The notes: generated by a model not told the origin, from the sequence alone. A stretch of DNA of 64,000 bases from Gaiellaceae bacterium (GCA_036279015.1 DASUJY010000072.1:962-64961), one strand, 5' to 3'. Shown: positions 43,887-51,160, counted from the first letter of the stretch. A program made the numbers and translations.

Positions 43887-43954
43887 GAATTCCCCGGTCG
43901 CTTTCAATCATCTTGGCCGGGCTCAGTGTAGCCAAGCCCTTCCGGGGCGAGCGA

Positions 43955-44431
43955 TCAGACGACGCCCTCGGGAGGCTGTCCGGGAACCCTCGCAGGTGCG
44001 GGCGCAGGCCGCTTCTTGTCGCGCGGCAGCTGGAGCAACTGGTTCATGTCGGTCCGGAAGCTGAGCTGAGGGGCGGGAGCCGGCGCGGGCGCCGGCGCGG
44101 GCCGCTGGAGCGAGGATCCGACGAAGCTTCCGAGCGCGGCTGCGGCCGCGATGGCGACGATGGCGACGCGCCGGCGAACCGGCAGGCGGAGGACGCCGCC
44201 GCGCTCGGGCGGCGCGTAGACGATCTGCGGCTCCTCGACCGGGGTCGCGCGCACGATCTCGGTCACGGAGGTGAGGCCGGCCGCGAAGGAGCGGCAGGCG
44301 GGACAACCATCGAGATGCTTGTCGAGCAACGCGCCTTCGAGCTCCGAGAGCTCGCCGTCGACGCGGAGCGACGCCCACTGACGGGCGCGGTCGCACCGTC
44401 CACTGCGCGGAGAGAGCGCTTCGCCGGCCAT
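43955..44431 (-). CDS. zinc-binding anti-sigma factor (ZAS, zf-HC2), single-pass membrane protein, no adjacent sigma gene
   Basis: C13 ... H39-x3-C43-x2-C46 (RCDRARQW...KHLDGCPACRSF), a TM segment VAIVAIAAAAALGSFV, and a Pro/Ala-rich C-terminal region. Confidence 0.75.
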   Translation of the reverse strand: MAGEALSPRSGRCDRARQWASLRVDGELSELEGALLDKHLDGCPACRSFAAGLTSVTEIVRATPVEEPQIVYAPPERGGVLRLPVRRRVAIVAIAAAAALGSFVGSSLQRPAPAPAPAPAPQLSFRTDMNQLLQLPRDKKRPAPAPARVPGQPPEGVV

Positions 44432-44484
44432 ATCTGCTCTGACGATAGCCGAGGAAGGAGGTTAGGAAGTTCCCGAAACGGGCG

Positions 44485-45381
44485 TCAGGCGACGGCGCCG
44501 TTGCCGGAGCCCGAGCGGGCCTCCTGCCGGATGCGCGCGCGCTCGAGCTTCCGCTCGCGCTGGCGGCGCGGGTCCGGGACCGGGACGGCGGCGAAAAGCG
44601 CCTTCGTGTATTCGTCCCGCGGCTCGTGGTAGACCTGCTCGGCCGTCCCCACCTCGACGAGCTTGCCCTGGTTCATGACCGCGATGCGGTCGCTCATCGT
44701 CCGCACGACTGCGAGATCGTGTGAGATGAAGAGGTACGTGAGCCCGAAGTCCCGCTGCAGGTCCTTGAGGAGGTTGAGGATTTGGGCCTGGATCGAGACG
44801 TCGAGCGCCGACACGGGCTCGTCGCACACGATCAGCTTCGGGTTGAGCGCGAGCGCGCGGGCAACTCCGATGCGCTGCCGCTGGCCCCCCGAGAACTCGT
44901 GCGGATAGCGGTTCGTGAAGTTCGGGTTGAACCCGACGATGTCGAGAAGCCGGCGGACCGTCTCGGTCCGGCTCCTGCGCGTGCCGATGCCGTGCACCTC
45001 GAGCGGCTCCGCCACGATTCCGCCCACCGTCATGCGCGGGTCGAGGGAGGCATACGGATCCTGGAAGACGATCTGCATCTCGCGCCGCATCCGGCGCAGG
45101 TCCTCGCGACCGAGCGCGGTCAGCTCCTTGTCCATGAACCGGATCGAGCCAGAAGTCGGCTTGAGGAGCTGGAGGATGCAGTAGCCGGTCGTCGACTTGC
45201 CCGAGCCCGACTCGCCGACGAGTCCGAGCGTCTCCCCCTCGGCGACCTCGAAGCTGACGCCGTCGACGGCCTTGACCGCTCCGACCGTCCGCTCGACGAG
45301 GACGCCCTTCCTGATCGGAAAGTGCTTCTCGAGATCGGAAACGGCGAGGAGCGCGCCGTTCGCGGAGGCGCCCTCGCTCAC
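44485..45381 (-). CDS. oligopeptide-type ABC transporter ATP-binding protein (OppF type)
   Basis: [27 protein letters not shown] overlap with the upstream gene. Confidence 0.9.
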
Positions 45382-46397
45382 GCCGTCACCGGCTCTGGCG
45401 AGCCCGAGCGCTCGCTCGTCGGATGCGCCGTGCGAACCCAGTGCCCTGGCCGAACCTCGCGGAGCTGGGGCTCGACCCGGGTGCACGAGTCCTCGTAGTG
45501 CGCGTAGGGACAGCGCGCGGCGAAGCGGCACGCTTCGGGCGGGGCGACGAGGTCGGGAGGGCGTCCGGGGATGGCGGTCAGACGGCTGTCCCTGATCTCG
45601 CGCTCGTCGCCCTCGAGCTGGGGCAACGCGCCGAGGAGCGCCTCGGTGTAGGGGTGTTCCGGATGGTCGAAGAGCTCGAATCCGGTCGCCTGCTCGACGA
45701 TCTGCCCGGCGTACATGATTGCGATGTCGTCACAGACCTCGGCGACGACACCCATGTCGTGCGTGATCAGGATCATCGCCATGTCGTGTTCCTGGCGCAA
45801 CTGGTCGAGCAGGTCGAGAATCTGGGCTTGAATCGTGACGTCGAGCGCCGTGGTCGGCTCATCGGCGATGAGGAGCCGCGGGTTGCAGGAGAGCGCGATC
45901 GCGATCATGACGCGCTGGCGCATGCCGCCCGAGAAGCGGTGCGGGTAATCGTCGATGCGCTCGGCCGCCCGCGGGATGCCGACCTCCTCCATGAGCTCGA
46001 TCGCGCGCTTGCGCGCGACTTCCTTGGGCACCTCCTCGTGCGCGCGAATCGTCTCCGTGATCTGAGTCCCGATCTTGAGCGTCGGGTTCAGGCACGTCAT
46101 CGGATCCTGGAAGATCATGGCGATGTCGTTGCCGCGGATCGACTGCATCTGCCGGTCCGAGAGGTTCGTCAGGTCGCGTCCGTCGAAGAGCACCTCGCCG
46201 CTCACGATCTTCGCCGGCGGCTTCGGGATGAGACCCATGATCGAGAGCGCCGTGACTGACTTCCCGCAGCCCGACTCTCCGACGATCCCGAGCGTCTTTC
46301 CCTTCTCGACGGCGAAGCTGATGCCGTCGACCGCCTGCACGACCCCTTCGCGCGTGAAGAAATGCGTCCTGAGGTCGTTGACCTCGAGCAGCGCCAA
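45378..46397 (-). CDS. oligopeptide-type ABC transporter ATP-binding protein (OppD type)
   Basis: [42 protein letters not shown] 46397 follows GCGAGG. The 596-aa ORF in the track is a read-through artefact. Confidence 0.9.
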
Positions 46398-46408
46398 CTC
46401 GTACCTCG

Positions 46409-50097: not shown

Positions 50098-50113
50098 GTC
50101 TGCCCTCCTCCTT

Positions 50114-50125
50114 GGGTACGTACCC
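50114..50125. promoter_or_regulatory. perfect 12-nt palindrome GGGTACGTACCC just upstream of the SBP gene SD (candidate operator)
   Basis: Read directly. It lies in the 90-nt Kelch-SBP spacer, next to a GGCCGC...GCGGCC hairpin at 50127-50153. Confidence 0.35.
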
Positions 50126-50187
50126 GGCCGCGCGCGCTTGCGCCGAGCGGCCAACCAGATGCTTAGACGCATCCGGGCGGCGGAAAG

Positions 50188-51135
50188 TTAGCGGAATGCG
50201 ATCTTGCGTGCCTCCACGACTTGTGAGTCGTGCAACGCGGTCGTGCAGCCGCCCACGGTGTAGAGCGTGCCGTCGATCGCAAACGCCTTGAGACCGTGCC
50301 TCGCGACGAGCGGCTCGGGGCCCTGGCGCCACTCGCCGGTGCGCGTGTCGTAGATCTGATACGTGTGCTCCCAGATGGTGTGGATCTCGGAGCCGGAGAC
50401 AGCCGTCCCGTTCAGCTCCATCGGCTTCGGCATCGTCGGCCCTGCGCGCCATTTCGACGACCGAGCATCGAAGATCCAGACGTCGCGAAGCGTCTCCTCG
50501 CCGCGGCGCCCGCCGAAGGTCCAGATCTCGCCGCCGAAGGCGACCGCGCCGAACGTGTGGTTCGGGATCGGCATCGGCGTCGACCGGCTCCACGAATCGG
50601 TGTCCGGGTCGTAGACGTAGACGGTCCGCCGCTCCTTGCCGCCCTCGAAGCCGCCGAGGACGTAGATCTTCCCGCCCAGCGCGACCGCCGCCTCGTTGAA
50701 GAGCGGCTCCGGCAGGGGAGCGCGGTCCTCCCAGCGCCCCGCCGCGACGTCGTAGGCGAGCACCCGGCGCGTGACGCCGCTCTCGACCTGCCCGCCGAAG
50801 ACGTAGACCTCGCCGTCGAGCGCGGTGCCGGCCGCCGCGCGCGTCGGGTCGGGCAGGCGCGTCAGCGTCGTCCAGGTGTTCTTCTTCGGGTCGAAGCGCT
50901 GGAAGGTGGCGAGGAAGCGCCCCGTCTCGCCCACCATCCCGCCCGCCGCGTAGATCTTTCCGTCCAGCTCCGACGCGGCGATGTAGCTCCGCCGCTGGGA
51001 CATCGAGGCGGCGTAGGTCCACGGCGCATCCATGGCGCCCGCCTGCGCGGCGTCGCCGGAACCCCGCGTCCCGAGAATGCCCGCGACCGCGACCACGACG
51101 ACCGAGGCAAGGGCGACGGTGACGACCGTCTTCAT
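50188..51135 (-). CDS. secreted or membrane-anchored Kelch-repeat beta-propeller protein
   Basis: N-terminal hydrophobic signal/anchor. Repeated G-KIY/VYV-GG...W units (KIYAAGG, EVYVFGG, KIYVLGG, EIWTFGG, TLYTVGG). Confidence 0.8.
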   Translation of the reverse strand: MKTVVTVALASVVVVAVAGILGTRGSGDAAQAGAMDAPWTYAASMSQRRSYIAASELDGKIYAAGGMVGETGRFLATFQRFDPKKNTWTTLTRLPDPTRAAAGTALDGEVYVFGGQVESGVTRRVLAYDVAAGRWEDRAPLPEPLFNEAAVALGGKIYVLGGFEGGKERRTVYVYDPDTDSWSRSTPMPIPNHTFGAVAFGGEIWTFGGRRGEETLRDVWIFDARSSKWRAGPTMPKPMELNGTAVSGSEIHTIWEHTYQIYDTRTGEWRQGPEPLVARHGLKAFAIDGTLYTVGGCTTALHDSQVVEARKIAFR

Positions 51136-51160
51136 CTCAAGGAGTAGGACGCGCGGACCG

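Follow-up and report, generated by a model that had tools for sequence, protein, structure and literature searches.

The gamma|beta break in the ATP synthase genes is an old trait of the order Gaiellales, with variable cargo in the interval and a predicted promoter for the beta and epsilon genes

The genes encoding the F1Fo ATP synthase (atp) were analysed in a 64,000-nt stretch of a Gaiellaceae genome (GCA_036279015.1, DASUJY010000072.1:962-64961), hereafter called the window, in which atpG (gamma subunit) and atpD (beta subunit) are separated by seven other genes, hereafter called the cargo. Coordinates refer to the whole 64-kb window, and the atp genes and the cargo all lie on the minus strand. 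Gene coordinates were taken from a listing of open reading frames (ORFs) and from Pfam scans, and some starts come from our own gene call. The atp features are listed below in the direction of transcription.

56372–56401, minus strand: predicted main atp promoter, read directly (TTGTCA at 56401–56396, 18-nt spacer, TACGCT at 56377–56372)
56149–56358, minus strand: atpZ-like small hydrophobic ORF of 69 residues at the operon head, recognised by position and composition only
55757–56149, minus strand: gene for an atpI-like membrane protein, from our own gene call; the protein cluster is kept in 63 loci
54933–55760, minus strand: atpB (subunit a); PF00119, E = 1.2e-50
54659–54919, minus strand: atpE (subunit c); PF00137
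54141–54662, minus strand: atpF (subunit b); PF00430, start from the gene call
53611–54141, minus strand: atpH (delta/OSCP); PF00213, E = 1.2e-43
52051–53592, minus strand: atpA (alpha); PF00006, PF00306 and PF02874
51161–52051, minus strand: atpG (gamma), 296 residues; PF00231, E = 9e-100
42402–43886, minus strand: atpD (beta); PF00006, PF02874 and PF22919, N-terminus aligned to homologues
41983–42402, minus strand: atpC (epsilon); PF02823, E = 8e-25

The set is complete, as all eight subunits (a, c, b, delta, alpha, gamma, beta and epsilon) score above the Pfam cut-offs; neither the atpZ-like ORF nor the atpI-like protein matched any Pfam family. The predicted main promoter ends 13 nt before the ATG at 56358. 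The atpG gene begins with a GTG, which shares 1 nt with the stop codon of atpA, and its own stop codon occupies 51163–51161. From there, 7,274 nt and seven co-directional genes precede atpD, and the canonical contiguous order atpIBEFHAGDC is thus interrupted. The initial annotation of this DNA had described an unbroken run atpZ/I-B-E-F-H-A-G down to 51161, atpD-atpC from 43886, and an intervening set made up of a Kelch-repeat protein, an Opp-type ATP-binding cassette (ABC) transporter and a ZAS anti-sigma-like protein; Pfam and the ORF listing agree on the order, and Pfam agrees on the seven genes. Direct reading returned the same junction gaps that it had reported, 25 nt between atpG and the Kelch gene (51136–51160) and 68 nt between the ZAS gene and atpD (43887–43954). 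Its statement that the interval lacks mobility genes and flanking repeats is borne out by domain, tRNA and repeat searches. The interval contains no tRNA and no integrase or transposase domain, and the search for flanking direct repeats gave only short matches at chance level or matches derived from paralogues. The GC content at third codon positions (GC3) of the cargo genes (0.89–0.94) equals that of the atp genes. Hence none of the hallmarks of a mobile element or genomic island (recombinase, repeats, tRNA target, atypical composition) was found in the window.

The products of the seven cargo genes are as follows.

50188–51135, minus strand: Kelch-repeat beta-propeller with an N-terminal hydrophobic signal or anchor; Kelch_1, E = 6.7e-56
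48430–50097, minus strand: Opp/Dpp-type substrate-binding protein (SBP), SBP_bac_5; PF00496, E = 4e-83
47383–48321, minus strand: OppB-type permease; PF00528 and PF19300, with the NCBIfam OppB-like model below its equivalog cut-off
46409–47383, minus strand: OppC-type permease; PF00528 and PF12911
45378–46397, minus strand: OppD-type ATPase; PF00005 and PF08352, start from the gene call
44485–45381, minus strand: OppF-type ATPase; PF00005 and PF08352, start from the gene call, overlapping the oppD stop by 4 nt
43955–44431, minus strand: ZAS-type anti-sigma-like membrane protein of 158 residues; PF13490, E = 2.3e-10

The Kelch protein matches generic Kelch propellers in PDB. The label of NanM/YjhT mutarotase, found in some sources, was rejected, as the scores of 45–57 bits compare with cut-offs of 243–416. 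The SBP start was revised to the GTG at 50097, which is preceded by the ribosome-binding site aaggaggaggg; homologues are 552–553 residues long. The composition is that of an Opp/Dpp importer, namely a family 5 SBP, two BPD_transp_1 permeases and two ATPases with oligo_HPY domains, as in the classical Opp/Dpp (PepT-family) importers. Orthology to a transporter of known substrate is not indicated by the best NCBIfam scores (OppA, 280 bits vs 947; OppB, 285 vs 388). Unlike classical Opp systems, the importer is tightly associated with an exported Kelch propeller, both in the atp interval and elsewhere.

The ZAS protein scores 40.8 bits against a zf-HC2 cut-off of 22.2, and comprises one transmembrane segment and a short tail rich in proline and alanine. 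The motif H-x3-C-x2-C (H-LDG-C-PA-C in the translation) is kept in an alignment of 22 homologues, and weak PDB matches to RsiW and RslA were obtained. The zf-HC2 domain, the motif and the single transmembrane helix are shared with the anti-sigma partners of the RsrA-SigR, RslA-SigL and RsiW-SigW modules. In contrast with these modules, which pair a sigma factor of the extracytoplasmic function (ECF) group with a ZAS protein, no sigma gene adjoins the ZAS gene of the window. Searches with phmmer and tblastn, using RpoE and SigR queries of approximate sequence, retrieved no gene for an ECF sigma factor, whether from the window or from the Gaiellales loci, and the ZAS gene is accompanied by no cognate sigma gene either in the window or in the 20-kb loci described below.

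The gamma|beta break was placed in its phylogenetic context by a gamma-subunit scan of one genome per species. The scan yielded 80 loci with 10-kb flanks, comprising 57 Gaiellales loci and 23 outgroup loci (Solirubrobacterales, Thermoleophilaceae or related), which are referred to by L numbers. The window proteins were placed in all loci by tblastn, and gene maps were drawn with a GC3-based gene caller and protein clustering. The closest gamma subunits, from metagenome-assembled Gaiellaceae or Gaiellales, are 65–86% identical to that of the window, and those of Thermoleophilaceae and Solirubrobacterales are 50–58% identical. In all 23 outgroup loci, atpG and atpD are 22–136 nt apart. In contrast, about 30 Gaiellales loci feature atpD 2.7–9.5 kb downstream of atpG on the same strand. 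Within the order, the two genes are adjacent only in L038 and L043 (27 nt), and L055 has a gap of 205 nt devoid of cargo. Since nearly all Gaiellales loci are split and all outgroups are adjacent, the gamma|beta break is an old trait of this order of Thermoleophilia (Actinomycetota), not of one genome. In neighbour-joining trees of atpA and atpG, Gaiellales are monophyletic in 100/100 bootstrap replicates; the clade holding the adjacent loci is recovered in 100/100 replicates and is basal in 0/100. Because this clade is never basal, adjacency in L038 and L043 more likely reflects secondary loss of the cargo.

The gene order of the window recurs in at least eight independent assemblies (L002, L003, L005, L081, L082, L086, L087 and L088), several of which have it on contigs of 0.18–0.54 Mb. 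The annotation had treated the interval as an insertion; a recent or genome-specific one is contradicted by the presence of the same break in nearly all sampled Gaiellales and its absence from the sister orders. The alternative that it had named, an ancient lineage trait with a dedicated atpDC promoter, agrees with the lineage-wide break and with a conserved element 5' of atpD (see below), the promoter itself being predicted rather than mapped. As a separate observation, L009 (JBLMYA010000016.1) is titled 'Verrucomicrobiota bacterium' but contains a typical Gaiellales atp locus, with a gamma subunit 72% identical to that of the window, the common cargo, ZAS and the atpD box; mis-binning of the contig or a wrong label is the probable cause.

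The cargo varies extensively among Gaiellales. The commonest order is permC-SBPa-permB-ATPase-ATPase-tm19-ZAS, followed by atpD. The SBP of this common cassette is a different family 5 protein, 22–25% identical to that of the window. The tm19 protein (cluster c19), a membrane protein of 120 residues (115–135 in homologues) encoded between ZAS and the ABC ATPases, has no counterpart in the window; an example to which no family was assigned is found in L011 (17045–17416). The gap of about 650 nt before ZAS in this cassette was considered as a place for an ECF sigma gene, but it encodes tm19 and no sigma domains. Some loci contain, in addition, a MoxR-DUF58-VWA operon together with another ABC cassette. 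In L040 and L048 the interval holds a nucleotidyltransferase-like gene and an NhaA-DsbA fusion on the opposite strand. ZAS is itself on the opposite strand in L052, along with three further genes, and in L050 ZAS comes straight after atpG. The only mobility gene in any interval is found in L014 (18180–19128), where insertion sequence fragments (a helix-turn-helix part and an rve_3 integrase core) lie between ZAS and atpD; the atpD -10 box persists downstream of them.

The Kelch–Opp order of the window is restricted to its own subclade (L002, L003, L005 and the metagenome contigs L081, L082 and L086–L088). We infer that the Kelch–Opp set replaced the common cassette in this subclade, because L001 features the common cassette and falls within the same 100%-supported clade as the window. 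The Kelch–Opp module is a unit in its own right, with a conserved association of Kelch protein and transporter. Outside the atp locus it is found as SBP-B-C-D-F-Kelch (L083–L085), with 62–78% identity to the window proteins. The copies in L083 (4525–11146) and L084 (4465–10912), which lie beside rhodanese/beta-lactamase-fold and acyl-CoA dehydrogenase genes, have no good CTAAC-CGTCT motif (described below). In L025 and L031 the module occupies the atp interval on the opposite strand. L025 does not represent a simple inversion of the window cassette, as its gene order is that of the canonical SBP...Kelch module placed on the opposite strand, not that of a flipped copy.

Second copies of the atpG 3' end were detected in the spacers of L016 (11022–11072; 51 nt, 82% identity) and L020 (10991–11013; 21/23 nt matching), and are probably recombination scars of cargo exchange anchored in conserved flanks. 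The empty interval of L055 (10886–11080) contains no cargo gene, and holds a GC-rich palindrome, GGAACCCATGGTTCC, and an atpD extended -10 element, TCGGTTACACT. Perfect GC-rich hairpins lacking T tails, such as GGGAATCCGCGGGAGCGGATTCCC, were also observed 3' of the atpG stop in L009 (11000–11090) and in L027 and L029 (about 10895–10930). In these loci with long spacers, such hairpins may end the first atp unit as terminators of actinobacterial type; in the window, the space after atpG is too short for one.

The alignment of the 100 nt upstream of atpD revealed one conserved island in otherwise diverged sequence. It consists of a TANNNT hexamer, mostly TAGACT, located 25–86 nt upstream of atpD in 28/28 split loci. 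T at -5 and G at -2, neither of which had been selected for, are present in 26/28 of these loci, and neighbouring positions carry about 0.1–0.5 bit. The resulting consensus, TnnGnTAGACT (general pattern TnnGnTAnnnT), is that of a sigma-A-type extended -10. In Actinobacteria, housekeeping promoters usually combine a TANNNT hexamer, preceded by a G at a distance of two bases, with a -35 that is weak or lacking. The element of the window is as follows.

43925–43935, minus strand: predicted atpDC promoter, extended -10 TTGGCTACACT, with the hexamer TACACT at 43930–43925, 38 nt before the atpD ATG; the transcription start is predicted near 43918

The element is present in loci in which the gene upstream of atpD is divergent (L025, L052, L040 and L048), as well as in the empty interval of L055. 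Read-through into atpD is impossible in the former four loci, as the neighbouring gene lies on the opposite strand. The element is absent from the adjacent-type loci L038 and L043 and from the outgroups. TnnGnTAnnnT occurs at a frequency of 0.0028 in random 101-nt windows drawn from the loci. In the 64-kb window, 6/6 occurrences are intergenic and point at a gene start. In 57 loci, the DNA of which is 92% coding, 56/70 occurrences fall no more than 200 nt upstream of a start and 4 are inside genes, and atpD is the top target (25/31). We read the element as a general -10 because it is found near starts, rarely inside genes, and is kept where the neighbours are divergent. Since it is conserved even in loci with a divergent upstream gene, a dedicated atpDC promoter is likely throughout the order, as predicted from these comparisons. 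Other TnnGnTAnnnT sites of the window, all on the minus strand (24623–24613, 30286–30276 and 38756–38746), lie 28–114 nt before starts and are candidate housekeeping promoters.

Two mechanisms of beta and epsilon expression had been put forward in the annotation, a 7-kb read-through and a new internal promoter, possibly tied to the inserted genes. The comparative data favour an internal promoter, as a prediction; read-through is possible but not required, and may add to atpDC expression. A tie of the atpD promoter to the inserted anti-sigma gene is not supported, as the atpD element is a housekeeping-type -10 and the ECF-type motifs described next precede the cargo, not atpD. A simple scan of 41500–57000 for sigma-70 promoters and terminators found no promoter and one irrelevant terminator-like site, the consensus used being too E. 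coli-like for a GC-rich actinobacterium. An Rfam scan of the same region, with E up to 1, returned no family.

In most split loci, CTAAC, a spacer of 16–17 nt and CGTCT(C/G)A directly follow atpG, whatever the first cargo gene. Three such two-box motifs are found in the window.

51145–51172, minus strand: ECF-like motif before the Kelch gene; CTAAC at 51172–51168, 16 nt, CGTCCTA at 51151–51145; 17.2 bits
50163–50191, minus strand: ECF-like motif before the SBP gene; CTAAC at 50191–50187, 17 nt, CGTCTAA at 50169–50163; 26.2 bits
44438–44465, minus strand: ECF-like motif before the ZAS gene; CTAAC at 44465–44461, 16 nt, CGTCAGA at 44444–44438; 14.5 bits

At the first site, CTAAC lies inside the last codons of atpG (GCG-CTA-ACG-CAG-TAA), and the CTA codon that contributes to this -35 box accounts for 0.8% of the leucine codons of the window. 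At the second site, CTAAC overlaps the Kelch stop codon. The motif ends 9 nt before the Kelch ATG and 6 nt before the ZAS ATG, and neither gene has a Shine-Dalgarno sequence. The lack of this sequence and a start 6–9 nt after the -10 box fit very short leaders. The segments TCCGCTAACTT (50195–50185) and TCGGCTATCGT (44452–44442) were considered as sigma-A extended -10 elements, but comparison across loci assigned them to the ECF-like two-box motif.

A matrix scan of the 64 kb ranked the Kelch|SBP, atpG|Kelch and oppF|ZAS sites as the best three matches, the fourth being intragenic and of lower score. A regular expression for the core of the motif matched 43 Gaiellales sites, 0 of which are inside genes, and 37/37 of those assignable to a start are within the atpG–atpD interval, before permC, SBP, ZAS, Kelch and a few other genes. 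When spacers of 17–21 nt were allowed between TAAC and GTC, 17 or 18 nt were found in 44/46 sites, and the flanking C residues, which had not been imposed, are present in 44/46 and 39/46. At a threshold of at least 14 bits, a position weight matrix (PWM) found 83 sites in the Gaiellales loci, 0 of which are in genes, and 1 in the outgroups. Across Gaiellales, 19 two-box sites are found upstream of ZAS genes. Five loci with the window-type cargo that were outside the training set (L081, L082 and L086–L088) feature exactly three matches each, at the same three junctions.

By sequence, the motif conforms to an ECF-type promoter, with an AAC-containing -35, a CGT/GTC-containing -10, a spacer of about 16–17 nt and a position upstream of genes. 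Published ECF promoters include those of Corynebacterium glutamicum sigma-D, the -35 box of which is GTAAC, and of E. coli sigma-E, with a GGAAC -35 box and a GTC -10 box (PMC6338062). Cores and spacing are alike, but the -35 box reads CTAAC in the window, as against GTAAC and GGAAC. The anti-sigma gene rsdA of C. glutamicum lies within the regulon of its own sigma factor (PMC6338062); likewise, an ECF-type motif precedes the ZAS gene itself in the window. Motif and gene content predict that the cargo is most likely part of an ECF-type regulon that has an orphan anti-sigma factor. That an unlinked ECF sigma factor would drive the cargo, with the ZAS protein as its anti-sigma factor, is a conjecture.

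Split atp genes with a separate beta-epsilon unit are textbook knowledge for cyanobacteria and chloroplasts, whereas a single contiguous atpIBEFHAGDC cluster is usually assumed for Actinobacteria. In most cyanobacteria, an a-c-b'-b-delta-alpha-gamma operon is accompanied by a separate beta-epsilon operon, and chloroplasts are split likewise (PMC11124002). The adjacency of atpG and atpD on which the initial annotation relied was too strong a premise in view of these systems, which break at the same gamma|beta point as Gaiellales. They also share with Gaiellales the pairing of beta with epsilon. A promoter for the pair is predicted in Gaiellales too, and subunit stoichiometry would then have to be balanced across two transcription units in both. 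In contrast to the cyanobacterial operons, which occupy separate loci, the Gaiellales halves share one strand and are separated by 2.7 to more than 10 kb that hold variable cargo; wherever atpD was located, the distance is 2.7–9.5 kb, and the halves are therefore not unlinked. Gaiellales further differ in being a non-photosynthetic, heterotrophic actinobacterial order, in keeping ZAS beside atpD and in having cargo with a predicted private promoter type.

The halves share with the canonical actinobacterial atp operon the gene set, the order within each half and a GT4 glycosyltransferase gene upstream. The atpBEFHAGDC genes of C. glutamicum are reported to be contiguous, to be transcribed as a single 7.5-kb mRNA and to be controlled by SigH (PMC3917460). 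C. glutamicum provides a precedent for an ECF sigma factor acting at an actinobacterial atp locus, but its atpG and atpD are contiguous and co-transcribed, whereas in Gaiellales the two genes are separated and the ECF-like motifs precede the cargo rather than the atp genes. A literature search combining Gaiellales, ATP synthase and operon found no paper on this organisation.

Downstream of the second half, two ORFs with weak or partial domains of MetE (cobalamin-independent methionine synthase) come straight after atpC in the window (39900–41953, minus strand), one at 41042–41953 (Meth_synt_1/2, weak) and one at 39900–41045 (Meth_synt_2, catalytic). The same pair is found 3' of atpC in L006, L011 and L086, and resembles a MetE-like arrangement, split or of two genes, that has been conserved.

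We consider it probable that the normal state of Gaiellales is two neighbouring, co-directional atp units, atpZ/I-B-E-F-H-A-G and atpD-C, separated by a slot for cargo, with a promoter for atpD-C and ECF-type promoters for the cargo. The atpD-C unit would be transcribed from a housekeeping-type promoter in the last 70 nt or so before atpD, and the supply of beta and epsilon would not depend on the upstream content, as with the beta-epsilon operon of cyanobacteria and chloroplasts. The slot would tolerate gene gain, loss, inversion and replacement because atpD-C is autonomous. In the subclade of the window, an ancestral ABC cassette of the peptide/nickel type would have been replaced by the Kelch and Opp genes, and the ZAS gene beside atpD would have been kept. 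The cargo genes would be driven by ECF-sigma-type promoters of their own (CTAAC-N16/17-CGTCT), three of which are predicted in the window, and these would probably depend on an unlinked ECF sigma factor with the ZAS protein as anti-sigma factor. In the window, read-through from the atp promoter into the Kelch gene, and from the cargo into atpD, would be possible but not required.

Several points weigh against this two-unit interpretation. Every promoter call is a prediction from sequence. The atpD promoter lacks a conserved -35 element, and CTAAC...CGTCT could be a repressor or activator site instead. As no ECF sigma gene was found in the window or in the Gaiellales loci, the pairing of sigma and ZAS is conjectural. 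The PWM was trained on the loci first scanned, and its independent support comes from the five extra loci and from the spatial distribution of the sites. The upstream regions share ancestry, so the recurrence of a motif reflects conservation rather than independent occurrence. No T-tailed terminator follows atpG or ZAS in the window, which makes read-through into atpDC possible, and much of the atpDC mRNA of this genome could come from it. The 68-nt spacer between ZAS and atpD folds no better than shuffled sequences (z = 0.06); a terminator or attenuator hairpin at its cttggc/gccaag repeat was dropped for this reason. In about 10 Gaiellales loci of the MoxR type, the cargo extends over at least 10 kb and atpD lies beyond the fetched DNA. 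Finally, an ancestral split followed by secondary re-joining is favoured, not proven, by a simple distance tree that may be subject to long-branch effects.

The same data may be read in other ways. The co-directional genes of the window, the gaps of only 25 and 68 nt and the lack of a terminator-like site from atpG to atpC would agree with a recent 7.3-kb insertion into an intact atpIBEFHAGDC operon, with beta and epsilon translated from a read-through transcript of about 13 kb starting at the atp promoter; the restriction of the Kelch–Opp cargo to one subclade indicates that this cargo, at least, is relatively young. The age that this scenario requires is already contradicted by the break in nearly all Gaiellales with different cargo, and both ZAS and the -10 element of atpD are kept whichever type of cargo is present. 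The equal GC3 of cargo and atp genes and the lack of repeats, tRNA and mobility genes also argue against it, and exclusive read-through disagrees with the four loci that keep the -10 element with opposite-strand genes directly upstream of atpD. We regard a recent insertion as improbable. An artefact of assembly or binning, by which the cargo was misjoined between the halves of an ordinary atp operon, might be suspected since the window and all its relatives are metagenome-assembled and the label of L009 is implausible. The initial annotation had also named this possibility, which is contradicted by the recurrence of the gene order and of both junctions in at least eight assemblies made independently in different projects, some with contigs of 0.18–1.3 Mb, and by the conserved, position-specific motifs in the junction sequences; an artefact is extremely improbable.

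The boxes themselves are open to another interpretation. TAGACT and CTAAC...CGTCT might be transcription-factor sites, or signals for RNA processing or translation, within one long transcript in which the slot is co-regulated with the ATP synthase. The Kelch gene lying only 25 nt after atpG, the atpD element without a conserved -35 and the absence of a linked sigma gene are compatible with this view. However, TnnGnTAnnnT is found almost only upstream of starts and precedes many genes that are unrelated, which is what a general -10 should do; the two-box motif, with its AAC/CGTC cores and a strict spacing of 16/17 nt, is built like a typical ECF promoter; no Rfam family matched and the spacer RNA is not unusually structured; and loci with divergent upstream genes need a promoter exactly at this position. 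A non-promoter role for the boxes is accordingly unlikely. We also hold it unlikely, on present evidence, that the gamma|beta interval is a conserved regulatory unit rather than a neutral slot. In such a unit, an unlinked ECF sigma factor held by ZAS would switch on the nutrient importers lying within the atp locus and tune the supply of beta and epsilon, either via read-through or via promoter interference at the ZAS–atpD junction; if true, F1 assembly would be linked in this way to the sensing of envelope, redox or nutrient state.

The functional points made here are predictions from comparative analysis, and they resolve no long-standing question. The two-unit organisation nevertheless describes a whole, mostly uncultured soil order that has the cyanobacterial break point, with the halves side by side around changeable cargo, and the gamma|beta split offers a simple synteny marker for Gaiellales. 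The comparisons also provide two candidate promoter consensus sequences for the order, a housekeeping extended -10 and one ECF type, together with an orphan anti-sigma factor whose regulon may be predicted from sequence. For ATP synthase biology, Gaiellales would represent an independent natural case of how alpha3-beta3-gamma stoichiometry is held without co-transcription.

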